A DNA stretch of 64,000 nucleotides from Blepharisma stoltei ATCC 30299 (taxonomy: Eukaryota > Protista > Ciliophora). Each line of letters opens with the position of its first letter. Position 1 is the first letter of the stretch. The notes beneath the pieces are model-generated. The model did no database searches and was not told the origin of the DNA. It was given only the letters and a program-made list of their open reading frames with translations. A program made the translations under genes and the position numbers. This document shows positions 6,138 through 43,442 of the stretch, one piece after another. The stretch spans positions 1 to 64,000 of the forward strand of contig CBFDEM010000010.1 in assembly GCA_965603825.1 (NCBI GenBank), read 5' to 3'.

Positions 6138-9100
6138 TTAAGACTCTTGAACCAAAGGACTGTATTGTCTATTTCTCGTAGATAACGCAGAAACCTCAAT
6201 GCTTCCTGATGAAACTGATGCCACATTTCTCACATCTGTCATCTCATACTGCAGCTCTTGCTTGACCTTCTTGAATTTTCTATAAAAGTAAATAGCTGTA
6301 AACACAGACCCTAGCAGTATCAATGCAGCTCCCCAGAAAATTATTTGTCCAATCCCATGATTCCTTCTCCTAGTCAACACGATTTGTGTAGGATCATACA
6401 CCACCATCCCCAGCATCATATTTTTAGCTCCTTGTGCCACTGCAATCACATTAATAAATCCAATATTACTAGGCAGCTCCACTTCAAGCTCATTAGCCTC
6501 ACTTCCATACAAAGACCCTACATATTTAGCTCTTCCTGCATTAGCAGCAGCATGCATCCCACAAGCTGTCATCATTTGTACGTCCTCATCATCTGTAAAT
6601 ATTACATGATACTCTACAGTTTTTGGTGTCTCATATGGTCTGCCGCCTTCATATTCAATAGGACTCCATATGACTTTTATTTTTCGGCCATCTTTTCTTT
6701 CCCATTTCAAAAGTCCATCATGCCCTGGGGCTAGATTTTTAGGTGCTTGGTCTCCTGCTTTGGTGAAAACGGTTGTCATTTGATAAGTTGCGTTTTTAAG
6801 GCTTTCTACGAGCGAAACTGTGATGTAATAAGTCCCGAGTGCGTTATTGATGCTTCCTTGAATCCTGCCGTCAGTGAGGCTTCCTACAAATACATCAGGG
6901 ACTTCTTGGCTTATTAAGGTCCAGTTAGAAGAAATTTCAAGCTTGAGTTTTCCTTCACATGGGATTACATAAACGTCAAGTTTCCCTTTTTCGTTGACAG
7001 TAAGCTCAAATCTCTTCCTTGTGATAGGACTTGATAAATAGTCGTATCTGTCTGTTCCTACTTTTAATGTGACCATTTCCATGCTAGATGAGCAAAATAG
7101 GTCAAATTGGCCAAAATCGGAGCCTGAATGATCCCCATTGTCGCTTCCAAAAACAGCCAGATTGAGGCTTCCAAAGCCAGTCTCATTGAAAGCCATTTGT
7201 AATTCTCCATACAAAGGATCGTACTGCTCCATCTCAAATTTATATTTCGAATTGAATTGGTTAGGGAAATCTTTACGCTGCCCTGAAGGCTGGAAATCTG
7301 CATAAACTCTTGGCCAAAAGTCAGCACTTAAAGGAGTCAATGTACAGAAAACTGGCCCATGGAAATAAAGATGGTTTCCGAACTGGAAATACACCTTTTG
7401 GCTTCTGCTATATTCGAGTCCATATGTGATTGGCCAGCCATCTACCAGAGTTGCATATGTGTTCCTTGTATGAACGGTCACAGAATAAGTGGATTCTAAA
7501 GCGCAGCTGATTCCAATATAATAAGTCCCTACGATGAAATTAGGGTCACTTGTTTTGATTCCGATAAAGTCAATTTTTTGGCTAGAAAACGCAAACCATA
7601 GAGAGTTTTCGTAATTAACAGTCTTATTAGTAGACACATAAGCATCAATATCGCCACTGAAGGAGGTGAACAAAATATCAAAGTCTGTTCTCTCATTGAT
7701 TTCAAAGGAATAAAACTGCCACCTTTGAGGTACGATGTTAGACCTGAAAGGAATCCCGTTCTGCAAAACAGTGATAGTTTGGTTATTGTTCGCTGTTATA
7801 CTATAGGTGCAGTTCGAGTCTGTTGTATTTACAGCAATTAAGATATTGCAATACCAGCAAAAATATGGATCATTGGTTGGGATATAGATCACATATCTGT
7901 TATTTGCAGTAACTGAAGACCAAATGTAATTGTCTAATGTAGGCAGCCGCTCATAGAATTGGTCATCATATCCATAATCATAGCTTGCTAGAAGGACTGG
8001 GGTGCCAGTTGTAGGGACTAAGCTTATGACGATGTCGACATTGAGCACATTAAAGAAAGAATAATAAGCAACTGAGTTTTTCGCAAGTCTTCCTTGTTGG
8101 GGGATACCTGAATATAATCTGGTGACTGGAGTTATATGATTGTTTATTGTCAATGTGAAAGAGCCTGAAATCACTCCTAAAACTCCAATTATATATGTGC
8201 CTCTCATAGTAAGCTTGTCGTGGAAAAAAGGGTTTTCTTTGCTAATAAGCAACGATTCTCCTAACCAATTTTGTGAAGCCCAATCCCATCTATCGCGTGT
8301 TGGCTTCGCAGCTCTTCCCATTGAGACAAATAAATCAGGATCCCCATTACTGAGTGGAGTTACAGTAATTAAGAAATCAGTTTCATCTTTATCGCAATAA
8401 TAGGAATAATACACATATTGGTTTTCGTCAGCATACCCATATGTCGGAACATTTTCATAAATAATCGTAATTTCTTCTTGCTGCACATTTAAGCTGTACA
8501 TACAGGAATCACTAAAGCAGTAGACTCCTATAAGTGCTAAACAGTTTCCGCTAGGGCAAGCTATCAATAAATCTTCAGAGGAAATGTCAATTTCGTCAGT
8601 CATCACTGTAGATTGCGACCAATAGCTCGAATTTGTCCTTGAAGGAAGCTGCCATTTGGTAATGTCATAGCCAGCCTTTATTACATCAAAAATGTTCATA
8701 AAGAGGTCAGGGTCACCTTGAAGAGGCTGAGAAGTTACTGATAATGGAAGAAATGCATTGATAGTCACATAGTAATAGTCCTCTTGAGTCTTATTTACCT
8801 GGTGGATTTCTGGAGTTCCTATCATAAGAGGAGAAGGAAGATTCCTACGAGGATGGACCTTAATTGTGTAAGTTGAAGCAGAAAACCCATAAACAGCAAT
8901 ATAAAGGTTACAATTAGTAGGACTGCCATGGGTATATTGGTCTGGAAGGGTTGGACACTTAGGCTGGATGTCTGCCCATGTGATTGTCAGGACTTCGCTT
9001 CCGAAGTTGTTTGAACGGAATTCGTTGTCAGATTTAGAAGGTTGTGGTTTTTGAGGACTAGCAGTAATATAGAGATCTGGATCCCCAGATAAAGCTGTGA

Positions 9101-11339
9101 CTGTAATAGTAATGTCTTCATGGTTATAAAAAACAGGGAATCTGTAATAGTCGTATTTCTTTTCTTCAACTTGGCCATTGTATGGAATGTCTTCAGATAA
9201 TATCACTACTCCTTCTCCGATTGAGTAAACAATTGAATAAGTAGCTGAGTCGTCAGAAAATTGCTCAGCAATGACTAAAACTAAGTAAGTTGTGGTCAAC
9301 AGATAGGCTGGATCATTGGTTTCTATCGTAATAGTGTTAGTTATATCAGTAGAATTAGAGTCACTTCTCCAGTTATAGTAAAATATTTCTGTATTCCAAT
9401 CTAGGCTTGCAAGAGAGTTTGCAGCGTAAATTGAGTATTTTCCTGTGATTGGCGTAAGGGTAATTCTGAAAGGCTGCTTGGTTTCAGCTGTATAATGAGC
9501 TGTGAAGTAATAAATTCGGTAGTCTCCATCAGTTACATTATATACAGTATCTTTTTGAGGATGGCCAGGGTAGAGCTGGATTGTGGTGTTTTTTATTGGA
9601 AGCGTTTCTTTAGCAACAATGGAAAATGTGGTTGTAGATGCAGAATACACAGCTACATGATAAGATCCTATTAAGTCTTGTTTGCCGTCTTCACCTCTGA
9701 CATATGAGACAGAATCAATTTCAGTTGCAGCTTTATTTGATGACTTCTCAAAGAAAGTAATATTTGGCTTACCAATACTAGACACATATAAATCAGGATT
9801 CCCTATTATTGGGGTCAGTGAAAAATCAACCTGAGTCGCTGTAATATTAAAAACATCATACACAAAATATTTATATCCCGACCCTTGTATACTCCCCGAC
9901 GTAGGCCTTCCATCTTGAAGTCTCAGCTCTGAACTAAGATCAAGTAAGGCAACTACTGTAAAATAGCTAGTCTGGACACTAGCCCCTGCGACCCCAATAA
10001 TATACTTACACGTCTGTGCCTTGTTGCATTTGTTTGACCTATGAGCAATATTAATAGTATCACTTCCGGTCGAATGGTTTGAATAGTGAATATCCAGTCC
10101 TGGATTAGTAATATCTTCTTTCTTAAAAACGCACTCGTAAATATCACCACTTGTACAAAGCTTTGCATACAAATCAGGATTTCCTTCTAGCGCTGTGACC
10201 TGTACAGTAATGTTGTAGTTTACGTTAATTTGAAGCTCAAAGTAGAATAAATCTACATCAAGGTAATTCACATACCCAGTCTCTGGGACTCCAGCTGTCA
10301 AAGGAGTAAAGCTGTTTTGATTGATAGACACAGTCAATGAATAGGTAGAATCCATAAACCCACATATAGAAATATAATAAAATCCAGTTGGGCTTCCTAA
10401 AGACTGTCTCATTTCTTTGTCTATAATAAGTGTATCATTCCCATACTTTCTCGCTGCAAAATCGAACTCAGTTATAGAAGGAACCTTTCCAGCACTTACA
10501 TATATATCGGCATCGCCTGAGAATGGGGTCAAGTTAATAACTAAAGTCTCATTTGGATCATCCACTGCGATAAAATATGCGTTACATTGTCCACCTCCTA
10601 CAGTTCCTCTAACAGGCACTGACGCTTGCAAAGATTGGATGTTGTTGCTTGGAGTAGTCGCTGTTATGGTATATTGGGTATCAGTAAGCGCCACAATGAC
10701 TGCTCTATATGTTTCGTCATTTTTAAGACTTTCAGTATAAAAATCTTGACCTGAATGCCAGTTGTGCTCGATTGGCAAAGTATTGTCTGCGGTCGGAACA
10801 GTATCCCCTTTGTTTACAAAAAGCTGAAATTCCCCAAAAGTCGCTGAGGCCGCAATTTCTAGGAAATTCCAATTGTTTTCTGTCACAATTTTATATACGG
10901 CTTGTCGGCCTGCTGTGAGATTTCCGGATATTGGCATCCCTGAAATCAGAATAATTTCGTTTGTATAGGCCACTGTAAGAGCATATCTGCAATAAGTATA
11001 GCATGAAACCAGAATAAAGTAATCTGTGTCATTCTTTAGCTCTGAAGGGGAGATCAAAATTGAGCCTATTCCAAATGCAACGCTAGCCCAGTTAAAATTA
11101 GTTACAGTTGGAATTTCGCCTACTTTTACGTACATATCTGGGTCTGACCAATCTGAAAATGTTGTAAGGGAGATTGCGAGATCTTCCTCTGGGATGAGAC
11201 TAGAAATATGGAACTTGTATACTTTGGTGCCACCAGCTATATTCGTAACATTGTTTGTCACAGTTCTCCCATCTTCGATGTCTATTGCATTCTGAGCAGA
11301 AGAAAGGCTGAAGACTGCAATCAGCCATAATGGAAACAT
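6138..11339 (-). CDS. Type I membrane protein with tandem PPC-like (pre-peptidase C-terminal) beta-sandwich repeats, 1733 aa
   Basis: Signal peptide; recurrent ~110-aa units with G(D/N)PDLY motif; one C-terminal TM (IIFWGAALILLGSVFTAIYFY); short tail ending YSPL. Confidence 0.88.
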   Translation of the reverse strand: MFPLWLIAVFSLSSAQNAIDIEDGRTVTNNVTNIAGGTKVYKFHISSLIPEEDLAISLTTFSDWSDPDMYVKVGEIPTVTNFNWASVAFGIGSILISPSELKNDTDYFILVSCYTYCRYALTVAYTNEIILISGMPISGNLTAGRQAVYKIVTENNWNFLEIAASATFGEFQLFVNKGDTVPTADNTLPIEHNWHSGQDFYTESLKNDETYRAVIVALTDTQYTITATTPSNNIQSLQASVPVRGTVGGGQCNAYFIAVDDPNETLVINLTPFSGDADIYVSAGKVPSITEFDFAARKYGNDTLIIDKEMRQSLGSPTGFYYISICGFMDSTYSLTVSINQNSFTPLTAGVPETGYVNYLDVDLFYFELQINVNYNITVQVTALEGNPDLYAKLCTSGDIYECVFKKEDITNPGLDIHYSNHSTGSDTINIAHRSNKCNKAQTCKYIIGVAGASVQTSYFTVVALLDLSSELRLQDGRPTSGSIQGSGYKYFVYDVFNITATQVDFSLTPIIGNPDLYVSSIGKPNITFFEKSSNKAATEIDSVSYVRGEDGKQDLIGSYHVAVYSASTTTFSIVAKETLPIKNTTIQLYPGHPQKDTVYNVTDGDYRIYYFTAHYTAETKQPFRITLTPITGKYSIYAANSLASLDWNTEIFYYNWRSDSNSTDITNTITIETNDPAYLLTTTYLVLVIAEQFSDDSATYSIVYSIGEGVVILSEDIPYNGQVEEKKYDYYRFPVFYNHEDITITVTALSGDPDLYITASPQKPQPSKSDNEFRSNNFGSEVLTITWADIQPKCPTLPDQYTHGSPTNCNLYIAVYGFSASTYTIKVHPRRNLPSPLMIGTPEIHQVNKTQEDYYYVTINAFLPLSVTSQPLQGDPDLFMNIFDVIKAGYDITKWQLPSRTNSSYWSQSTVMTDEIDISSEDLLIACPSGNCLALIGVYCFSDSCMYSLNVQQEEITIIYENVPTYGYADENQYVYYSYYCDKDETDFLITVTPLSNGDPDLFVSMGRAAKPTRDRWDWASQNWLGESLLISKENPFFHDKLTMRGTYIIGVLGVISGSFTLTINNHITPVTRLYSGIPQQGRLAKNSVAYYSFFNVLNVDIVISLVPTTGTPVLLASYDYGYDDQFYERLPTLDNYIWSSVTANNRYVIYIPTNDPYFCWYCNILIAVNTTDSNCTYSITANNNQTITVLQNGIPFRSNIVPQRWQFYSFEINERTDFDILFTSFSGDIDAYVSTNKTVNYENSLWFAFSSQKIDFIGIKTSDPNFIVGTYYIGISCALESTYSVTVHTRNTYATLVDGWPITYGLEYSRSQKVYFQFGNHLYFHGPVFCTLTPLSADFWPRVYADFQPSGQRKDFPNQFNSKYKFEMEQYDPLYGELQMAFNETGFGSLNLAVFGSDNGDHSGSDFGQFDLFCSSSMEMVTLKVGTDRYDYLSSPITRKRFELTVNEKGKLDVYVIPCEGKLKLEISSNWTLISQEVPDVFVGSLTDGRIQGSINNALGTYYITVSLVESLKNATYQMTTVFTKAGDQAPKNLAPGHDGLLKWERKDGRKIKVIWSPIEYEGGRPYETPKTVEYHVIFTDDEDVQMMTACGMHAAANAGRAKYVGSLYGSEANELEVELPSNIGFINVIAVAQGAKNMMLGMVVYDPTQIVLTRRRNHGIGQIIFWGAALILLGSVFTAIYFYRKFKKVKQELQYEMTDVRNVASVSSGSIEVSALSTRNRQYSPLVQES

Positions 11340-28974: not shown

Positions 28975-30711
28975 ATGGCGAAAAAGATTATCATTGCCGT
29001 AGTTATAGGTTTTGCCTCTATCAAACTATTTTCTTTTATCCGTCGAAAATCAATTGCATATCGCCACCACAAAAGAGCCCAACAAAAGCGATCTGAAAGA
29101 GACTCCAAAACAATCACTCTCCCTGAAGTCGAAAAATCCAAGCAAGATTATATTCTTTCTCTTCACGCTTATGAGCTTGCAGATGCTATAAAATCCGGCA
29201 AAGTCACAGCAGTAGAAGCGACATCCACTTATATTTACAGAGCTTACACCCTAGGCCGAAAATTTGGACTCACAACTGAAGAGCCCTATGAAGCGGCCTT
29301 AGAGCTTGCTTATCAGCGTGACCAGCAGCTAAAAGAAAGCCCAGAGACATGTGGAATTCTCCATGGGGTTCCTATCAGTCTCAAAGATATTTTTTCTCAA
29401 AAAGGATGCTGCAGTACCGCTGGACTTGCATGCAAACTTAGCAAAATGGACACTGAAGACTGCTATTTATTAGAAATATTAAAAGAAGAAGGAGCTATTC
29501 CTTTTGCAAGATCTAATATTCCTCAAGCTTTAATGTGGATGGAAACTGATAATGATATTTATGGGAGAGCTGATAACCCATGAAATCCTGAATTTTCTAC
29601 TGGAGGAAGCTCTGGAGGAGAAGGTGGGCTGCTGGCTTGTAGAGCGTCTCCACTTGGAATTGGAAGCGATATTGGCGGCTCTATTAGGATCCCTTCATCA
29701 TTTTGCGGGGTTTATGGCTTTAAAACGACAGCTGGCCGAGTTTCTACTAAAAATGTCATGGTATCTCACCCTTCTGGCGTAAACCCTTTCGCGTTTGTAG
29801 TAAAAAGTGTTTCAGGTCCTATGGCAAGATGTGTAAAAGATATGGAACTTGTGCTAAAAGCTTGGTGGCAAGAAAAATATTTCGCAAAAGATTTTGCTTT
29901 GTGCCCATTGGCATTTAACGAAGAAATGTATACAAATGCATATAAAAGCAAGAGCTTGAGAATTGGGTATTTCTTTGACTTAGACAACTTTGAATGTTGC
30001 CCAGCGATAAGAAGAGGGGTTAGAGAATGCAGGGATGCTCTTAAGAAATTGGGACATACCTTGGTAGAATTTCATTTTCCTAATTCAAAAAAAGCTCTAA
30101 ATCTTTATATGAGAAATGTTTCTGCATGCAGCAATCGGGTTCTATTAGATGCTATGCAAGGAGAAGAGCCGGCAAAGTTTTATAAGCCAGGGTTCTTCTT
30201 AGTAGAACACCCATGGATCAAGAAAATTATTATGCAAATTTTGCAGATGACTAATAACCAAAGACTCTACGATTTATTGAATATAAGCCAAAATCTCACA
30301 CCTGCTGAATATATCGAACTTTTTAGAGAAATCAACGACTATGTTCAAGAATTTACAAATTATTGGCAATCTCTACAGCTAGACGTAGTAATCAGTCCTG
30401 CTTATGGAACAGTGGCTACTCCTCATGCTGAAGGCTTTAAAGTTGCATCTTCTTTGATATACAGCACTGTTTGGAATATATTAGGATATCCTGCAGGAGT
30501 AATACCAGTTGGAATTGTAAAGGAAAATGAAACTGAGTACATAAGCAAGGTCAATGATTTAATCACAAAAAATGCTAAAGCAATCACAAAGAATTCGTCT
30601 GGATTACCTATTGGTGTACATGTGGCAAGTTTGCCTTATAGAGATGAAGTAGCTCTTGGCGTTATGAAGCAAATTGAAGATGAGATTAATTTCCATCAAT
30701 TTGCATTTTAA
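28975..30711 (+). CDS. Amidase-signature enzyme, FAAH-like, with N-terminal membrane anchor, 578 aa
   Basis: LHGVPISLKD, NPW(TGA 29581), GGSSGGEG, GSDIGGSIRIP, GLPIGV. Confidence 0.93.
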
Positions 30712-31214: not shown

Positions 31215-31838
31215 ATGACAACAAGTTATTATGATCCAGGAGATGTTATCGAATACTGCTTACTTACAAACTGATATAAACCGCGGCCAGATCACCTCCA
31301 ATTTGACTCAAAAAATCTCAAAGATTGCATGATTTATCTCAAAACATCCAAATTCAGAAAATACCTTCCATTTCTAATCAACGATTTATACATAAAAGAT
31401 CCAACAATATTATCCCAGCTTTCTATTTCCAGGAACCTCTTTAACCTCTTAAACGAGCCTAGTAACCGCCCTCTAGACGATGAGGATACCATTTGTTTTC
31501 TCTGCGGAAATAAAGAATATGCAAAGCTTATTATACATTTGAGGATTTATCATAAATTAAGCAAAGAGATGGTTAAGGATTATTTTGCAATGTATGAGAA
31601 TGAGTATAAAGCGATTGGCTCAAAAATTGATTATTATGAAGACAAAAGCACTGTAATATGTGATTTATGTAAGAAACCGTATTGCAGTCTTTATTATAGA
31701 AAACATATTTTCGTGCATTTTAATCTCAGATTTATACCTTGTCCGATTTGTGGAAAATTAAGATCGAAACAGAATTTGAAGGGGCATATTTATAGAGCAC
31801 ATGAGAGGCCCGGGGGATTGTTAAGAGATGATAAATAG
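31215..31838 (+). CDS. C2H2 zinc-finger protein, 207 aa
   Basis: CxxC..HxxxxH, CDLC..HIFVH, CPIC..HIYRAH; start extended to ATG 31215 through one TGA. Confidence 0.8.
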
Positions 31839-31990: not shown

Positions 31991-34900
31991 CTAAATTTTG
32001 CTACGGTCACTTATGCTCGACATTGATCATCTATTTTGATTTGAATTATTTGTTGGCGAGGCAGCCGGCAATTTATTTACGTTTAAGTATTGTAACTCAT
32101 AAGGTATAATCGTTTTCCCATCCTTACTATAAGCTTGGCTCGATATTTCACTGTCACTCAAGGTGTAATTTGTTTTAAAATTAAGTTCCATTTTTTTAAC
32201 AGCGTCAATGAGTTTTTTTGTTTTCTGTTGATTTTTCGACCTCTCTACAGCTGCTTTAGTACCTTTTTCTATTTTTTGCATGAAAAACCCTCCCATATCA
32301 ATTATTCCGCTAACAGAGCCTATTAAAGCACTTATAAACAGCAGAAACGTAGTGTTTATGCTTCTCACAGTTAGGAAGCCAATTGTATTGACATCTAAAT
32401 TAATAACAATTTTTAATGACCTTGTCAATATCATTTTATAAACTGTCGAGCTATCTCCTGGCGTATAATTTTCGCTAACTGAAACCATAAATCCTGTCTG
32501 GTTTGTCGGCCAAGAGCTTGATTGAGAAATAAAAAGCTAAATATCAATTACAGATGGCGTCATATCAAAATGAACATATGACGGATTATTTCCTATGAAA
32601 ACTTCATCTTTTGGAGGAGATACATAAAGATTTAGAGAACTTTTTTCTCCGGGTATAGAAGAATCAGCCGAAACGTTTGCAGAAAAATAGCTGCAGTAAC
32701 TAGTTGTTTCTGACAGCAATAAATAAAGGTAAGCTCCTGTATCAAGTGAGCATGATTTGCAAGTAATCTCCACAAAGCAGTTTTTGTTCTGCTTAATACA
32801 ATTAATTTTGCTAAAATCCCCTTGAATATTTTCAAAGCTTAAAATTATGTTTTCATTGCAAGAATCATTTTCAACGCATGTTCCTCCGTAATTATAAATC
32901 CCAATTACAATAAACAAATCACCTTTAATTCTTCCAGCTTGTTTTATTAAATTTTCAATTGGAATTAAGGATTTTGATTCTGCGATGTTGTTCCAACGAT
33001 ACTGCACAAAGGAGATGGAAACGAGATAAGCAGCAATTATAAGGGAAATTATGGAAAAAACTCCTCCAATACTTGTTTTTCTTGATCACATAGGCTGATC
33101 GTCTTCATTGTGCTTGTCGTCGTATAAATCTCATCGGATAATTGATTGTCTGAATTGTTTTTTTAGGGCTATTGCTAAAAGGAAAGTACTCAATATGATT
33201 GCAAAAAAAATGCCACTATAGGTTGTGTACTCTTGAATTAAATCATATTTCGGGTCAAAATCATCAGGCTGGCTTGATGATTTTGAAGAATAAAAAACTG
33301 CATCAGTCGGCTCTGTGCTGCCTACATTGCATGTTTTATCCCCAGGGCATTTTTTGCACATCCCAGTTCCATTTGTGTTTGAGTATGTTCCATAAGGGCA
33401 AGGAAGGCAAAAAATGCTTGAAGCAGATCCAGTATAAGAATTTTGAGTCCCAAATGGGCACTCTAAACATTCAGTTGAATTTATATTTTCATTATATGTA
33501 CCTGGTGAACATCATATACATTCAGATTCAAAAAAATATGTTCCTTTGCTGCAAGGACTATCTATAGTGCTGTTAATTCCAACTTTATACAAAGACGCAG
33601 AAGGTAGCAAATTGATAATATTTGTCTTAGAAACGCCTCCTCCAAATATATATAAATCATTTTTAACATATACAGTTTGGTGTCCAAAAATATTGAAGTC
33701 TAATATATAATAACTATCAATTGTGTAAGTTTCCAAATTCAAAAAAATCACAGATCCAGTTGAATAGGTCCCTTGAAGCTCTCCTCCTAAAATTATCAAA
33801 TGCTTAGAAAATAGCACGATTGAAGACTCACTTACTGACCCTGAAATAAAATTCAAATTTTTTACTAATTCTCATTGATTAGTCCTTAAGCTGTATTTAT
33901 AAGCATTTTGATTGAGCTGATATTCATCAGTTTCTCCCATAATTGCATAAAATTCGATATCGTTATTTTTTACCATTGTATAGCACTTATGTCAAACTAA
34001 TGGAGGAACTTCGATTCCTGTTGATGATATTGATGTTCATAATAAAACTGTTGTATCGTATATTCAAAAATCATTGGTTATCCCTGAATCAGTTAAACCT
34101 CCGAATAAGAAGATATAAGGAGGTGTAAAAGCCATGCAGGCACCTTTTGTGGGTGAGGGGACTGTGTCAGAATTTTTAACTGCTTCTTCTCATGTCCCTG
34201 AAGCTATAGAATAGATATAAAAATCGTTAAGCAGTCCAGTGATGCTTTCGCCGCCAAAAATTATCATTCCATATCCGATCCCAACACTTGCATGCCCGGA
34301 TCTTGCAGATGGTGAATTATCAATTCTCTGCAGTTCCCACTTCTCATTTTCTATATCAAATAGTCATAAGTCATTATATCTATATATAATTTACAATTCG
34401 TCGTTTACGCCTATTCCGCCTCATACAGCTAAATAATTGTTTACTACATGCATAGAAAACCTTATTCTTGCTGCTGGAGAATTTCAAATAGGAGAAAGCG
34501 TTTTATATTTTGGATGGTTTACAGATAAATCGATGTAAAGGAGGTCGTTCTGAAATGATGAGCCGCTGAATTGGTAGATGGTTGAATTAATCAAAATATT
34601 TGCAGATTCACATGAAATTTCTTTTTTTGTGCCTTTAGAAAACTCAACTTGCTGTCATTCAGACAATGTTGATAGATTTATTTTCCAAATATCTTGAAGG
34701 TTTGCAGCTTTTATGTAATTAAATCCTGGGGTTATATAAAAATAGCCAGAAATCACAGCTGTATGATGCCATGATCTTCCAGTCGGGGAAGAGGAAAAAT
34801 TATATTTAATTCATTTTTGCGAATCTAAATTATATCGGTATAAGTTAGGATCATATCCAACCCCAAAAGCATATCCTCCTCAAACATACAAAGAATTATC

Positions 34901-35522
34901 ATAAAATGACATTCTTGAGCCTGCTGTTGACACAGGAATATCTCCATTATTTGGCATAATAGTGCAATTCAGAGAATTTGCATCAATTCTGATATAAAAT
35001 TTACAAATATAATGAATTTTGGGAATTTTTTTCAGAAACACCTCCAAAAATCCCATAATAAATATTACCATTTCATTCAAAAATATCTGAAGCTGCATCA
35101 AATAAAGGATTTAATTTAGTTCCATTCAAACTTATTTTTTCTCATTCAAAATACTCTAAATTAAAGCTTCAAACATCAGCAATAGATCCGCCTGTGGTTT
35201 TTCCTGCAATTAAAATAAGGCTATTTCTTTGTTTGTTAAAAAGTAGTATAGACCCAACCCTTGGATCAGGTAAAATTGATGATACAGGATTAAGTTGTCT
35301 TCATATATGAGACGACAAATTGAAGCTTCAAAGATCATTTTTGTATAATCTTTTATCGGTTGATCCTCCAAATATAATTATGCGATTTTCTATGTAATCG
35401 TATGTGGAAGCTGCTGAAATTCTGGAATCTGGAGGGGCATCTGTTTCTGGGATTAGAGTTGTGGGTAGAGCAAAAATTTGTTGAAAAGCTACAAGAAATA
35501 AAATACTGTTTAAAGTGCGCAT
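31991..35522 (-). CDS. Kelch-propeller / Cys-rich repeat / 3-TM surface protein, paralog A, ~1161 aa, 3 introns
   Basis: Signal peptide, repeated hhFGG..D.W kelch units, CPxGT(Y/F) repeats, three hydrophobic segments; one frame after removing introns 34989-35004, 34380-34394, 32537-32551 and reading ~19 TGA as Trp. Confidence 0.85.
32537..32551 (-). other. 15-nt intron GTAATTGATATTTAG
   Basis: Removes in-frame TAG; same position as the paralog B intron 36411-36425. Confidence 0.88.
34380..34394 (-). other. 15-nt intron GTAAATTATATATAG
   Basis: Removes in-frame TAA and gives the kelch motif ELYNDLWLFD. Confidence 0.88.
34989..35004 (-). other. 16-nt intron GTAAATTTTATATCAG
   Basis: Restores frame (SLYL|IDANSL); same position in paralog B. 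Confidence 0.88.
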
Positions 35523-35906
35523 TATAATAGCTTTTATTTGTATGAATTATTAATTATACGTTGTAGAATTTTTTGGTAATTTAAAGTAACTAATTTTAAC
35601 TCTAGTTTAAAAAAATATAAGTTTTTGGAAATAGCATCTGGTTTTTTTTTTCATATTTATATATTTATTAAAACAATTAAATGTTTTTTATAATCAATAA
35701 TGATAATTGAAATCTACCTCCGAAGATAGACAGCATTCTTTTTACTGTGAAAATCTTACTTTAGGTGAGAAAATGTTATACTTTGCCAATTTAGGTAAAA
35801 TTGGTACAAAGAGCTAAATGTTTTTAACTCTCAATTAAGTATATTTTTAAGAATTTGCTCAAATTATCTACGATATAAAGGTTATTAATTTGTCGTAATT
35901 ATTCTT

Positions 35907-38900
35907 TTAATTTACAGTTTTATTCAAATGCAATTTATCTCAATAACGAAGTTGTTGATACTCTATAGAGTCGTCATAGAGTTCTTTAGCTGTATTCATT
36001 TCTTCTTTCATGTGGCAATCTATCAAAGTAAGTCTTCGAATATTAAATGGGAAATTATCTTGTATTTTAATATTCTCGTTGATAATTTTTTCATGGCTTA
36101 TTTTGAGACTGCGCCTTTCATTAATTTTTTTAATTTTATCTTCAACTTTTTCCATAAGAAATCCACCTGCACTGATAATTCCACTAATAGACCCCATCAA
36201 GGTACTAATAAAAAATAAAAATGTGTTATTAAGGCTTCTTATTGTTAAAACACCAATAGTATCTATATCCAAAGTCACCACAATCCCAAGTGTTCTAGTC
36301 AAAGTCATTTGAGTAACTGATGCACTAAATCCTTGTGTTGATTCTTGGCTTGACGAAACTAAAAATCCAGTTTGATTCGTTTGTCACTTAGAAACATCTG
36401 AGATAAATAGCTAAATAACTATTACTGATGGAATCATATTAAAATGCATATATGAAGGATTGACACCTATGAAAACCTGGCCAGAAGGAGGAGAAAGATA
36501 GAGATCATGAGAACTTTTTTCATTAGGAATTGAAGAGTCTGCAGTTACATTTGCATATAAGTAGCTCGCATAGCTTGTTGGCTCTGCAAAAGATATGTAA
36601 AAATAAGCTCCAGTTCCGAGATTGCATGAATTGAATGTTGCTTGCACAAAGCAATTTTTTTGATCTTTAAAGCATTCTACTACAACTGATTTACTGATAA
36701 TATTGTATTGATATCAAGATATATACTCATTGCAAGCGCTGCCCGTAACACATGAACCTCCATAATTATAAGCTCCAACTATAATTGTGATGTCACTGTC
36801 AAAATTTTCAGCTTGCTTAATAAGAGTTTCATACGGAAGCAAAGTCTTTGATTCTATCACGTTGTTATATCAGTACTCAAGATTAGATAAAGTAAAAATG
36901 TATATCACTCCAATAAATGCTAAAGCAGAGAAAAAACCACCAATGCTTGTTCGTTTCAGGTACATAGGCTTGCCTTCTTCATTATGTTTATCATTATATA
37001 TATCAAATTTCGTGAATTTTTCAAAATTTTTACTATTTCAAGCCAAAATACTTATCCAAAAAACCAAAAATATGGCAAGCCCAACGCCAAGCCATAGAGT
37101 GACTTTTTGAATAACACTTAACTCAGGTGAGTACTGGTCAGGTTGGTCTGTCTCTTCAGCGTTATTATGAAGTAAAACAATTGGTTCTGTAGATCCAACA
37201 GGACATGCCATACCTGCAGGGCATTTTTTGCACATCCCAGACCCAGGAACATCATTATATGTCCCTAACTCACAAGGAACACACACAAACTGGCTTGCTC
37301 CTCCTTGATATTCATTTATTGTTCCTATTGGGCATGGGTTGCATTTATCTATGCTTGAATCTTCTGATCAGGTTCCAATAGGGCATCAAATACACTCTAA
37401 ACCTGATTTATAAGCTCCTTCACTACATGGGCCATCCTCTAAAGACAATTTAATGAAATCAGATGTAGGAATATTGTTTATTCTAAGTGAGCTTGATCTA
37501 GTGCCAGCAAAAATGTAAATATCATTTTTCATATAAATTGACCGGTGGCTAAATAAATTTGTACTTAAGCCTAGAACTGCATCAACTGAATAGTTTTGTC
37601 CGTTAAGAAAAATAGCAACATTTGATGAAAAAATATTCTTAAACTCTCCGCCAATAGTGATTATGAATGAAGATGACAAAATTATGTTTGATGCTTCACT
37701 TAATGAAAACTGCAAATAATCAATAGTTTGGACGATTTCCCATGAATTTTGTTTTAAACTGAATCTATATATACTTTTATTCGGCAGATTATTATCTGTT
37801 TCTCCCATAAAAACATAAAACAAGAAGTCATCATCCTCGTGATCAGCGTAGCATTGGTGCCATGCTAATGGAGGGATAGTATCTCCTAGAGGGATTTTTT
37901 GGACTCAACCTAAAATTGTTATATCATATTGATATAAAATATTACTAAGTCCTGAACTTGTTACGCCACCATATAGAAAAATATAAGGAATTGCAGCATC
38001 TATGCATGCACCTTTTGCTGGAAGAGGGCTTTTTCCTGTAGAAGTAATTATTTGAGATCAGCTCTTAGAAGTTGCAGAATAAATATAAAAATCATTGAGT
38101 AGGCCAGTTGAATCTTCTCCTCCAAAAATAACCATTCCATAGCCAATACCTGTATGAGCATGGCCATATCTTGCAGATGGTTCATATAAAGGATTTTCTT
38201 GCACCCATTCATTATTGTCAACGCTGTATACCCAAAAATCATCTAACCTATATTAAATATTACAGATTCCCATTTCTTCCTTGTCCTCCAAATATAGCAA
38301 TTTTGTCATTTATTTGCTCCATTGCAAACCTCATTCTTGGAGGAGGCGAAACTCAATTAGAGGTCAATGTTGAAAACTTTGGATTTTCATAAGAAATATT
38401 AATATAAATCAAATCATTTGTATAAGTAGATCCACTGTATTGAAATAAAGTTGAGTTGACAAAAGTATTCCCAGCCTGACTTCTAAGCTGAGTGTTTTTG
38501 TCTATATCAAAATCAACTTGTATTCACTGATCTAAATCGTTAAGGTTGATTTTTCAAATATCATTTATTCCCGCGTCGTAATTATAATCAAATCCTGGAA
38601 AAATATACAAAAATTCAGAATATATTGCTATGTAATGCCACATTCTCCCAATAGGGGATTTATTAAAAATGTGTTTCGTTCAGACTTGGTTTTGTAAGTC
38701 ATATATATAAAGATTATTATCATATACATATTCTGTTGTAAGTCCACCTCAGATATATAGTTTTCCATCAGAAAATGCAATTTTTGCGCTGTGAATCAAA
38801 GTAGGCCCATCCCCTGTATTTGGCATGATGATACAATTTAAACTCCCTGAATCAATCCTATAGTAAGTCTTACAAATAAATTAAATTTGAAAATCCAGAA

Positions 38901-39391
38901 TCAATAGCTCCTCCAAAAATCACATAATAAATATTACCTTTTCATTTAAAAGCTTCATATGCCACTGACGAGAGAGAATTTAATTTGCAGTTTTGCAGTT
39001 CTAATTCTTTCCAAACTAGTAAGTCTAAATCAAAGCTTCATATATCAGTTATGGCTCCAAGTTCGGTTTTGCCTGCCATGATTATTAGTGAATTTTCTGC
39101 TTCATTGAAAAATGATGCTGATTCTTTCCTTGCATCTGGAACTTTTGATGATGAAGGGCATAATTCTTGCCATTGATTATTGTTAAAATTGAAGGCTCAT
39201 ACATCATTATAATAAACATTTTCTGCTGAAGCCCCACCGAATAACAGGAGTCTGTTTGCGTTAGTGTCATAAACTGAAGATGGCAATGATCTTGCAGTTG
39301 GAGGGCAGCCTGTTTCGGGTATTTTGCTTTCTTTGATAGCTGAAGTTGCGAATATTACTGAGATAATTAGTAATAGGGCAAGCATTGCCAT
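35907..39391 (-). CDS. Kelch-propeller / Cys-rich repeat / 3-TM surface protein, paralog B, ~1145 aa, 3 introns
   Basis: Collinear with paralog A (IPET..PP..R, HNE..PM..TSIGGxFS, YGGxCV, ADSSIP.EKSS, TIGxLTxRS); introns 38858-38873, 38248-38263, 36411-36425; many TGA=Trp. Confidence 0.85.
36411..36425 (-). other. 15-nt intron GTAATAGTTATTTAG
   Basis: Removes in-frame TAG (MIPS|LFIS). Confidence 0.88.
38248..38263 (-). other. 16-nt intron GTAATATTTAATATAG
   Basis: Restores frame (GNL|LDDFWVY). Confidence 0.88.
38858..38873 (-). other. 16-nt intron GTAAGACTTACTATAG
   Basis: Restores frame (LIYL|IDSGSL). Confidence 0.88.
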
Positions 39392-39680: not shown

Positions 39681-41456
39681 TTAACTATCTTCAGACTTTC
39701 TCTTCTTTTTAAGTTTTGATGAGTCTTCTTTGTGTTTTCTTTTAACAGGAAGGGATTCTTCATTTTCATTATCTTCTTCCACTTCATGTGTTTTTTCGGC
39801 TTTAGCTTTTCCTTTCTTTGTTTTTTTCTTTTCAATTACCTCTTCATCTGAAATTTCTTGTTCTTTTTCAACAGATTTTTTTCCTTTTGGCTTTGATAGC
39901 TCCTCCTCTTTTGGTTTTTTGATTTCTTTTGCTTCGTTTTTGTTCTTCTTTGATTTCTTTTCAGCATTTTTGTCTCCAATATTAATATCTAGATCCCCAA
40001 AGCTCTGTTTATCTGATTTCTCTTCTTTTACCTCTTTTTCATGCTTTTTATCTTTTTTCTCTTTTTTATTTCTTTTTTCTTTCTTACTCTTTTCTTTAAG
40101 ATCATGTACCAGATTTTCTAACTCTTCATTCTCATATGTATTTTCCATCAGCTTTTTCCTCTTTGCATCTTTTTTGTCTTTTTCTTTTTGCTTCTTCTCT
40201 TGACTCCATTGTTCATTTTCCTCTTCAATTTCTACTTTTTCCTCCTCTATCTCCATATCACTGTCCTCTGTCTTTTGCTTTTTTGCTTTTTCTCTTTTTT
40301 CTCCGCTATGCGGCTTGCTAGCTTCTTGTGGTATTTCATTATCATATTTCTTTAGCTTGCATACAAAGAACCCTTCCATGTTGTAAACGTGAGGATAAAT
40401 TCTCTTACATTTGGTCATTGATGGGTGGAATATTTTTCCTTTGAATTTTGGAAGCCCAGGTTCTCCAATAGTTAGCCCAGTATCAACAATTTTTACATGT
40501 CGATTTTTCAAGGCATAGCTGATGACTTCTTCATTTTCTTCGATAGAAATTGAACAAGTTGAATACACAATATATCCTCCTGTGCTGGATCTAGCATTTA
40601 CTACATCAATTGCTTCTAATAATAGCTCTTTTTGTATATGGGAATTTTTCTTGATATCTTCAGTTGTCCTCATTGCTTTTACTGATTGGTCTTTCCATAT
40701 AACTCCAAGCCCAGAGCATGGGGCGTCTAATAAGACTCTGTCAAATCCGTTTAAAACTTTTCCAATTTTTCTTCCGTCATAGTTTGTGATAATACAGTTG
40801 GTTATACCCAACCTGTGGACATTCCCTTTAATTGATATAAGTCTGTCCTTATTCATCTCATTAGCAACCAAAACGCCTGTGTTTTTCATTAGCTGGCCAA
40901 TGTGTGTGGTTTTTCCTCCTGGAGCAGCACACATATCCAGTATTCTTTCACCTGGCTTAGGTGCCAAAGCCATCACAGGCAGAAATGAGCTAGCTGACTG
41001 AAGCATATAATGTCCAGCCAAATACTCAGTAGTTGCTCCTATCGGGACTTGACTTTCGATAATTTTCAGTCCAACCTTGCTTCATTCGCCTACTGGGTCA
41101 AGATTTACACCTTTTTGTATCAGTGATTGGGCAAGCTCCCTTCGCTTAGTTTTCAATGTATTTGTGCGGATTACCATAGGACGTGGAGTTTGGTTTGCTT
41201 CTAAGAATTCGACAAGTTCAGCTGGTGGGAAAAATGATGCGAGGTAGGCTGCGAGGTCTCGATTGTACTCATAATAAATGATGATATTGTCCACAAGTTC
41301 ATCGAGATATTCAGATCGTGTTTTTTCTCTGGGTTCATCTTTATATCGAACGAGAGTTTGAACAAGCTCTTGAATTTTCATGTGAACTAATCCAAGATCT
41401 GACTTCATGTGTGTGTCATTTCCTTCGGATACATGGACAGATATCTCTTCACTCAT
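39681..41456 (-). CDS. NOP2: Nop2/NSUN1 rRNA m5C methyltransferase, 591 aa, K/E-rich tail
   Basis: IRTNTLKTKRRELAQ, GEW(TGA)SKVGL, ILDMCAAPGGKT, VLLDAPCSG, VYSTCS. Confidence 0.95.
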
Positions 41457-42770: not shown

Positions 42771-43442
42771 TTATAACAAATGAACTAATAAGCTTAAAAA
42801 CCCTAGCGTTTTGATCATTGAAGAGTCCACAATAAAATTAAGATTCAGAATGTACTCTGGAAACAAATTTTCAGCACAGAAAGGCGCTGAGTATAAAGTA
42901 ATGTAGTTGTCCACCGTATAATTTCACAGCAGCATATCCCTATAATACATCTGCCCATCATGATTTGAGCACACAGTCCAAAAATCCTCATACAGCTCAG
43001 AGCTTTTATCAGCATAGCAATACTTATTTCCATCCATTCCACACAAGCAGTCTGCATAATCCCCATCTTTAAGCTTGCAGTCGTCTGTGGTATTGCATGT
43101 TTTCGGAAAAGTTCCATTGACTAAATCTCTATTCGCCGTTCTTGTTTCACACTTCACATAATAATCCAATTGAATCTTATTATTTTCTGTCTCTTCTCCC
43201 ACAAAGCATGGCAAATTAATTGTATCTCCTGTGGCTTGGCTTTTTACGACTGCATCTTCTACATATGTATGGTTGCATGTCAAATAGGAGCATCCTTTAT
43301 CATTAAGAGTTACCGTATTCTGGCTACCATACACAATGGCACATACTAAATCATCAAGAGTATCACAAGTAAACGTATAGCAGTCCTGACAATTAGAAGC
43401 CACAAGCAAGAGCCCAAGTATTACTAAATGGGGTAACTTCAT
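42771..43442 (-). CDS. Cys-rich secreted, probably GPI-anchored surface protein, 223 aa
   Basis: Signal peptide, C..DDC..CLCGMDGNKYC; reads through TGA at 42924 to a hydrophobic C-terminus and TAA. Confidence 0.82.

Follow-up and report, generated by a model that had tools for sequence, protein, structure and literature searches.

A tandem pair of genes in the ciliate Blepharisma stoltei ATCC 30299 encodes kelch-repeat receptors fused to a C-terminal membrane module, and this fusion combines a new architecture with what is predicted to be a known fold. The window analyzed here is the whole stretch of 64,000 nucleotides at positions 1 to 64,000 of contig CBFDEM010000010.1 (assembly GCA_965603825.1). 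From the N-terminus, both proteins comprise a signal peptide, 12 kelch repeats, cysteine-rich repeats, a first transmembrane helix (TM1), a cytosolic D-x-Y-xxx-H loop, a second helix (TM2), a beta-rich ectodomain, a third helix (TM3) and a tail, and the C-terminal module is predicted to have a fold of the PAC/Erv41/ASIC type. The single most likely function suggested by this structural resemblance is that of a channel. The proteins would form a trimeric, ligand-controlled, probably cation-passing channel whose gate is controlled by the kelch double propeller tethered to it, a proposal which we hold with somewhat less than even confidence.

Both genes lie head to tail on the minus strand with a spacing of 384 bp. 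Gene A (35907..39391) runs from an ATG at 39391 to a TAA ending at 35907 and encodes 1145 amino acids (aa) in four exons (NCBI model P0003). Gene B (31991..35522) runs from an ATG at 35522 to a TAG ending at 31991 and encodes 1161 aa with the same layout and intron positions (NCBI model P0004). The two proteins are 45% identical across 1118 aligned residues, and our spliced models agree in length and sequence with the NCBI records for Blepharisma stoltei, which are named 'unnamed protein product', attractin-like or ephrin-receptor-like and are automatically annotated as LZTR1-like or ephrin-receptor-like. The original prediction described two collinear paralogs of about 1150 aa that appeared only as scraps in the list of open reading frames. 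This description was accurate: standard-code reading frames are broken at both loci because TGA encodes tryptophan, at 17 codons of A and 20 of B, which accounts for the scraps.

Each gene contains three introns of 15-16 nt with the pattern GTA..AG, and their codon positions and phases are identical in A and B. Intron 3 of gene A (15 nt, 36411-36425) and of gene B (15 nt, 32537-32551) was absent from contigs of all four sequencing runs, intron 2 of gene A (16 nt, 38248-38263) from contigs of three runs and intron 2 of gene B (15 nt, 34380-34394) from a contig of one run, while no listed contig bridges intron 1 of either gene (both 16 nt; 38858-38873 in A and 34989-35004 in B; all on the minus strand). 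Thus, four of the six introns were exactly missing from contigs of these runs, which belong to a single study and whose type, 'RNA', was guessed by the tool and is not on record. When GT-AG introns are lost so cleanly, splicing is the best explanation, and A and B are therefore expressed. Both loci are real, expressed genes with intact frames. The possibility of untranscribed pseudogenes, which the original prediction had itself raised, is ruled out by the intact frames and the splicing of four of the six introns.

By hydropathy, each of the two proteins has a signal peptide and three membrane helices. In gene A the signal peptide (about aa 1-18) is encoded at 39338..39391 and the kelch repeats (about aa 25-640), which were located by Pfam and a glycine-motif pattern and likely form two six-bladed propellers, at 37440..39319. 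They are followed by the Cys-rich repeats assigned by Pfam to Ephrin_rec_like (aa 645-722, 37194..37427), by TM1 as an extra helix found by hydropathy (aa 752-774, 37038..37106) and by the cytosolic loop (36945..37037), in which the family alignment shows an invariant D786 and a near-invariant H792. TM2, the first helix of the channel-fold module according to hydropathy and the model of a relative, is encoded at 36870..36944, and the beta-rich ectodomain (aa 831-1040), which is PAC/Erv41/ASIC-like in the same model, at 36225..36869. TM3 (36141..36224), the predicted inner helix, carries a G[ST]xxG stripe of small residues and the invariant E1068 in the family alignment. In gene B, Pfam placed the kelch repeats at 33572..35450 and the Cys-rich repeats at 33320..33553, and hydropathy and alignment placed the segment from TM1 through loop, TM2 and ectodomain to TM3 at 32267..33232. 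All of these features are on the minus strand.

Kelch repeats and Ephrin_rec_like repeats scored above the Pfam cut-off, and PF24981, the attractin/LZTR1 propeller model, did so in 5/6 kelch-bearing exon pieces of A and B; for the last 400 residues no Pfam family exceeded the cut-off. The glycine-motif pattern recognized kelch repeats with a period of about 51 residues, 10 of them in gene A and 9 in gene B, and gaps near residues 312 and 515 of A, taken as two degenerate repeats, bring the total to 12. The proposed order of signal peptide, about 12 kelch repeats, Cys-rich repeats, three helices and conserved loop was therefore confirmed by hydropathy, Pfam, the glycine motifs and the alignment. 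The ectodomain between TM2 and TM3 is also present, but it is smaller than the suggested 230 aa or so, measuring 191-224 aa (median 211) across the family. From this layout we infer a topology with propellers and Cys stalk outside, TM1 leading inward to a cytosolic loop of 30 residues, TM2 leading outward to the ectodomain, and TM3 leading inward to a cytosolic tail. Eight of the nine N-glycosylation sequons of A fall in parts assigned to the outside.

The fold of the module was modelled by AlphaFold for P0018, a relative of 354 aa that extends from TM1 to the tail and matches A with 32% identity over 339 residues (E 3e-46). In the model, a beta-rich domain is flanked by two long helices (predicted local distance difference test, pLDDT, 94.3; predicted TM-score, pTM, 0.82; 107 aligned sequences). 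In Foldseek the rows listed for ranks 1-20 were all PAC/ASOR/TMEM206 structures (E 1.8e-10 to 8e-8), followed by Erv41 (1.5e-5), BRTNaC1, ASIC1 and, weakly, P2X7. VIA-align, which compared 48,161 chains, ranked the luminal domain of Erv41 (3zlc) at the top with Z 9.9, a root-mean-square deviation (rmsd) of 3.7 and 168 aligned residues in the ectodomain only. Next were PAC (Z 7.7, rmsd 8.1, 215 aligned), FaNaC (Z 7.0, rmsd 8.1, 233), ENaC (Z 7.0, rmsd 4.4, 123) and ASIC (Z 6.8, rmsd 10.6, 233), and beyond these channels unrelated helical proteins appeared at Z 6.8 and below. In a second VIA-align list 48/50 rows were channels of the PAC/ASIC/FaNaC type, among them PAC (Z 7.9, rmsd 7.1, 212 aligned), ASIC1a (Z 7.5, rmsd 8.7, 241) and FaNaC (Z 7.0, rmsd 8.1, 233). 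The high rmsd values against channels probably reflect differences in the hinge between helices and ectodomain in a monomer model.

The original prediction of an ENaC/ASIC- and ERGIC-like C-terminal module is thus supported by the model of the relative, which Foldseek and VIA-align both matched to two-helix channel and ERGIC folds. The best match over the whole module, PAC/TMEM206, had not been named. For P2X, also suggested, the match was much weaker than those to PAC, Erv41 and ASIC/ENaC: Foldseek gave E 1.4e-4 but an rmsd of 20 and a query TM-score of 0.18, and P2X was absent from the best 50 rows of either VIA-align list. PAC and ASIC/ENaC have a common 12-strand core, a trimeric build and an inner, pore-lining second helix without sequence similarity (PMC7904269), and a 1:2 trimer has been proposed for Erv41-Erv46 (PMC7001479). 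Judged by the fold class of PAC, ASIC/ENaC and Erv41-Erv46, a trimer of modules appears likely for the ciliate proteins as well.

At the sequence level the only family match of the module was ERGIC_N (PF13850), which was found below the Pfam cut-off in 3/3 and 9/24 members with a best E of 4e-4; gene B scored 19.6 bits against a cut-off of 27. The PAC and ASC families of Pfam had no match in 3/3 and 24/24 module sequences. Identity to all structural matches was 7-12%, and the query TM-scores of Foldseek were 0.34 at most. Searches of PDB sequences with module-only profiles yielded no match at E up to 10, the best 60 of 169 matches of the A4 profile were all proteins with kelch or Cys repeats, and a viral fold library gave no match at E 0.001 or better.

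Conservation of the module was analyzed in an alignment of 142 rows, with occupied cells or rows as denominators. In the loop and the first module helix, D786 was conserved in 132/132, H792 in 133/134 and G807 in 138/138 rows. The motif D-x-[FY] occurred in 131/132 rows and T-x-x-G-[GA]-x-x-[ST] in 87/138, within the stretch matched by ERGIC_N, and the invariant-type His was followed by Asn (HN) in 92/134 rows and by Gly (HG) in 3/134. TM3 showed G1051 in 115/116, G1055 in 114/116 and Glu at position 1068 in 116/116 rows. G[ST]xxG was found there in 96/116 rows and GxS in 6/116. No basic residue is conserved in TM3, since Lys or Arg occurred anywhere in aa 1046-1063 in just 19/116 rows, and an acid three residues beyond E1068 is not conserved either (3%). 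CCxxC was present in 0/142 rows and a single CxxC in 107/142. The tails are 24-108 aa long, have no conserved motif and ended in KKxx or KxKxx in 0/116 cases. In 27 near-full-length members the mean pairwise identity was 41% for the Cys repeats, 39% for TM3, 35% for the loop, 32% for the ectodomain, 28% for TM2, 27% for the kelch part, 16% for TM1 and 13% for the tail, which makes TM3 the most conserved helix and the tail the least conserved part. In the ectodomain, the His of a TGYH motif that is present in 94% of rows has been lost in A (aa 992-995, region 36362-36357), B and P0005, which carry TGFL, TGFM and TGYL; the change affects a titratable position and is specific to this subfamily.

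The family proved to be large. A module profile built from three Blepharisma paralogs was searched against 1.84 billion representatives at 50% identity and found 603 relatives at E up to 0.001. Figures on layout, taxa and conservation rest on the best 150 of these, and the other 453 may include other taxa or layouts. More than 130 residues preceded the module in 123/149 examined matches, all 123 of which had a Cys repeat there; the other 26 were too short to show the N-terminal part. Kelch matches were present in 37/40 chosen longer relatives, the remaining three being pieces of about 510 aa with Cys repeats only, and nearly all matches long enough to show TM1 had this upstream helix. Among the best 150 of 603, fusion of a kelch-Cys receptor to the module is therefore the rule. 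Fifteen of 30 matches looked up carried a species name (10 B. stoltei, 3 Stentor coeruleus, 2 Climacostomum virens). Blepharisma, Stentor and Climacostomum are heterotrich genera, and B. stoltei itself has at least 13 divergent paralogs, counting these 10 and P0003-P0005.

In a FastTree phylogeny of 116 complete modules, which left out the 26 alignment rows without TM3, A and B were sisters (support 0.97) within a clade of four Blepharisma members (0.997), and Blepharisma members stood on both sides of the midpoint root. The pair thus goes back to an old tandem duplication inside an older, repeatedly expanded family. Matches of about 950 aa and C-truncated matches were considered as distinct forms and rejected as intron-related artefacts of gene calling, because their starts cluster near residue 150-225 (40/149) and their ends near 980-1010 (32/149). 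The intron after a '[TI]PS' motif (36411-36425 in gene A) is apparently common to the distant relatives P0043, P0056, P0113, P0123, P0143, P0106 and P0140, five of which end directly after the site and two of which hold a short in-frame insert; 25 other relatives end near residue 1010, which suggests a further intron site. Alignment A6 is A5 without the misaligned P0154 and the Cys-repeat-bearing P0151, P0040 and P0011.

Word-index searches gave few relatives (1, 3 and 5 matches) and metagenome locus scans gave none. The nearest clusters of the ESM Atlas, which serve as leads only, were an unnamed rotifer-rich cluster and stand-alone ciliate proteins with PF27811 (Y80K_N). The latter resemble the module in language-model features (0.89-0.91, with no alignment or E-value), measure 315-412 aa and bear the family on 15-45% of members, but they are two-helix proteins too short for a kelch receptor.

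In the proposed channel three modules would form a trimer whose pore is lined by TM3 on the inside. One face of this helix would carry the small residues S1047, G1051, G1055 and S1058, with E1068 at the cytosolic end. Signal peptide and TM1 would place propellers and Cys stalk on the same side of the membrane as the ectodomain, where an outside ligand such as prey, a partner cell or matrix may bind the more variable propellers and thereby gate the pore, either through contact between propeller and ectodomain or via TM1 and the invariant D-x-Y-xxx-H loop. TM1 continues directly into this loop, so that ligand binding or force at the propellers could plausibly be passed on to the gate, and the many paralogs may correspond to many ligand specificities. 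In ASIC a band of Glu at the inner pore mouth sets Na+ selectivity (PMC5449180) and a re-entrant loop before TM1 lines the lower pore (PMC7308080). VIA-align placed our model from residue 41 on ASIC 6vtk from residue 30, inside the re-entrant loop, and the D-x-Y-xxx-H loop may occupy the corresponding place. The channel reading is favored by the conservation of TM3 above the other helices, its G[ST]xxG stripe, the invariant E1068, the near-invariant loop His, the lack of a di-lysine signal and the large number of paralogs. Ligand sensing, channel activity and a role in chemosensing or mating, as envisaged in the original prediction, would be possible functions of such a protein.

Several observations speak against a channel. 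HG, GxS and a conserved basic residue in TM3 are all missing as canonical channel motifs, and stripes of small residues could equally serve ordinary helix packing. The modelled fold belongs to P0018 and not to A or B. In addition, E1068 and H792 were mapped to ASIC residues from the end-points of aligned ranges and not from a residue-level alignment, and the contrasts between regions are inflated because the relatives were selected on a module without TM1. The Z values of the channels are below 8, a range that according to the tool may reflect a common arrangement, at an rmsd of 7-11, and the highest Z and the lowest rmsd belong to Erv41, a non-channel cargo receptor, to whose family the only sequence-level hint, ERGIC_N, also points. 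These last findings would fit an ERGIC-derived cargo or sorting receptor, in which a trimeric scaffold of the Erv41/46 type would reside in the secretory pathway and its luminal propellers would bind cargo, by analogy with sortilin, a sorting receptor built of a propeller plus a Cys domain. The cargo may, for example, be destined for extrusomes, pigment granules or digestive vacuoles. The conserved loop motifs in the ERGIC_N stretch agree with this explanation, as does the pH-dependent cargo binding of Erv41-Erv46 (PMC7001479). Nevertheless, we regard it as unlikely: none of the tails carries a COPI di-lysine signal and no row contains CCxxC, the long and poorly conserved tails differ from the short, signal-bearing termini of Erv41/46, the expansion into many paralogs seems unlike a housekeeping receptor, and the Erv41 crystal structure does not include the helices, which flatters its rmsd.

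The same fold in a non-channel such as Erv41 and the missing HG, GxS and PAC lysine are also consistent with a non-conducting surface receptor or adhesion protein. Here the module would only trimerize and anchor the protein, three double propellers would be presented for avid binding, and signals may be relayed by partners recognizing the D-x-Y-xxx-H loop or the tail. The kelch part matches the attractin/LZTR1 propeller model, and attractin and MEGF8 are non-conducting co-receptors. However, a simple anchor would hardly require TM3 and the loop to be so strongly conserved across all members or TM3 to end in an invariant acid on its inner side, and the tail offers partners no conserved motif, so that we see this explanation, too, as improbable, to a degree similar to that of the cargo receptor. 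A superficial resemblance, in which two helices happen to enclose a beta sandwich in a module unrelated to channels and ERGIC proteins, would be in keeping with the low identities and query TM-scores and the empty PDB sequence search. We consider it very improbable, as two aligners, working independently through 48,161 and 350,542 chains, put the same four families at the top with matches that cover nearly all of the module, and the ERGIC_N hint agrees with them.

The window begins at a macronuclear chromosome end with a long run of the telomere repeat CCCTAACA (positions 1 to about 1080). The gene pair is flanked by an amidase (28975-30711, +), a small zinc-finger protein (31215-31838, +) and a NOP2-like RNA methyltransferase (39681-41453, -), none with an apparent functional link to A or B. 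An intron-free gene at 6138-11339 (-) encodes a predicted single-pass membrane protein of 1733 aa that contains a signal peptide and numerous repeated beta domains; it has weak Pfam matches alone (UPF0669, E 2e-10; PPC, E 2e-4) and resembles another large unannotated surface receptor. A Cys-rich protein of 223 aa (42771-43442, -) has a signal peptide, a hydrophobic C-terminus and no Pfam match, and is possibly a surface protein anchored by glycosylphosphatidylinositol.

Our literature search, which covered mostly open-access texts without supplements, found no description of this family or of a fold link between ERGIC proteins and channels. The portions covered of PMC12485921 and PMC7935092 contain nothing on the family, and the main text of a Stentor genome preprint does not contain 'kelch', 'ENaC' or 'ephrin', although its supplements could list these genes among expanded or regulated families (bioRxiv 10.64898/2026.07.23.740246). 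Whether or not the family conducts, its conserved C-terminal third lacks a Pfam family. ENaC/ASIC, PAC and P2X sense via their own ectodomain with both ends inside, whereas here a separate receptor of 12 kelch repeats is placed ahead through a third helix. If the proteins conduct, this would be a new way of building a ligand-gated channel, realized across hundreds of divergent members, and would provide candidates, testable by RNA interference, for the currents that underlie chemo- or mechanoreception in Stentor and Blepharisma. The molecular basis of Stentor habituation has been described as largely undefined (bioRxiv 10.64898/2026.07.23.740246). Being closest in predicted fold to Erv41 in its ectodomain and to PAC overall, the family would also link ERGIC cargo receptors and trimeric channels as a superfamily. 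The full picture, in which heterotrichs possess a large repertoire of ionotropic receptors with a trimeric pore of PAC/ASIC fold and a swappable kelch double-propeller sensor joined by an extra helix, uniting cargo receptors and channels in this way, is more tentative and seems to us rather doubtful.

Among known systems, attractin and MEGF8 share the N-terminal half, with a signal peptide, kelch repeats matching PF24981 and Cys-rich repeats followed by a membrane helix. They have EGF, PSI and CUB domains and a single-pass topology. The resemblance noted in the original prediction therefore holds for the kelch and Cys repeats but not for the rest: EGF, PSI and CUB had no Pfam match in all eight exon pieces of A and B, the Cys repeats are of the Ephrin_rec_like type, and the ciliate proteins continue into a two-helix channel-fold module, which makes three helices. 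The Erv41-Erv46/ERGIC2-ERGIC3 proteins (PDB 3zlc) provide the best superposition of the ectodomain; loop and TM2 of the ciliate module weakly resemble ERGIC_N, and its last helix is likewise Gly-rich. Their termini are short and signal-bearing, with a C-terminal di-lysine in Erv46 (PMC7001479), whereas the ciliate module has neither di-lysine nor CCxxC, carries an outside receptor of about 750-775 aa at its N-terminus instead of a short cytosolic tail, and exists in many paralogs.

The likeness to DEG/ENaC/ASIC/FaNaC channels (PDB 6vtk, 6bqn, 7yvb) concerns the overall fold (Z 6.5-7.5), the near-invariant His before the helix, the Gly stripe of the last helix and the invariant Glu at its inner end. 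The near absence of HG and GxS sets the ciliate family apart, and its ectodomain of about 210 aa is too short for thumb and finger. PAC/TMEM206/ASOR (PDB 8zlb, 7sqg, 7ji3) has two helices and a compact beta ectodomain of similar size in common with the module (Z 7.7-7.9 over 211-228 residues in the model comparison) at about 10% identity. In PAC the inner-helix lysine K319 gives anion selectivity (PMC7904269), while the module has no conserved transmembrane lysine and an invariant Glu instead, and the ciliate protein is extended at its N-terminus by a signal peptide, the 12 kelch repeats, the Cys stalk and a further helix. PAC has been reported from deuterostomes only and unicellular DEG/ENaC homologues from heterokonts and filastereans, with no mention of ciliate proteins in the passages covered of that survey (bioRxiv 10.1101/2022.06.28.497943). 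Judged by its sequence, the family is a member of none of PAC, DEG/ENaC and ERGIC, though it may work like them, because HG, GxS, the transmembrane lysine, CCxxC and a Pfam family at cut-off are missing. Moreover, DEG/ENaC, PAC and P2X proteins have two helices and both termini in the cytosol, whereas the ciliate proteins have three helices and an N-terminal receptor outside.

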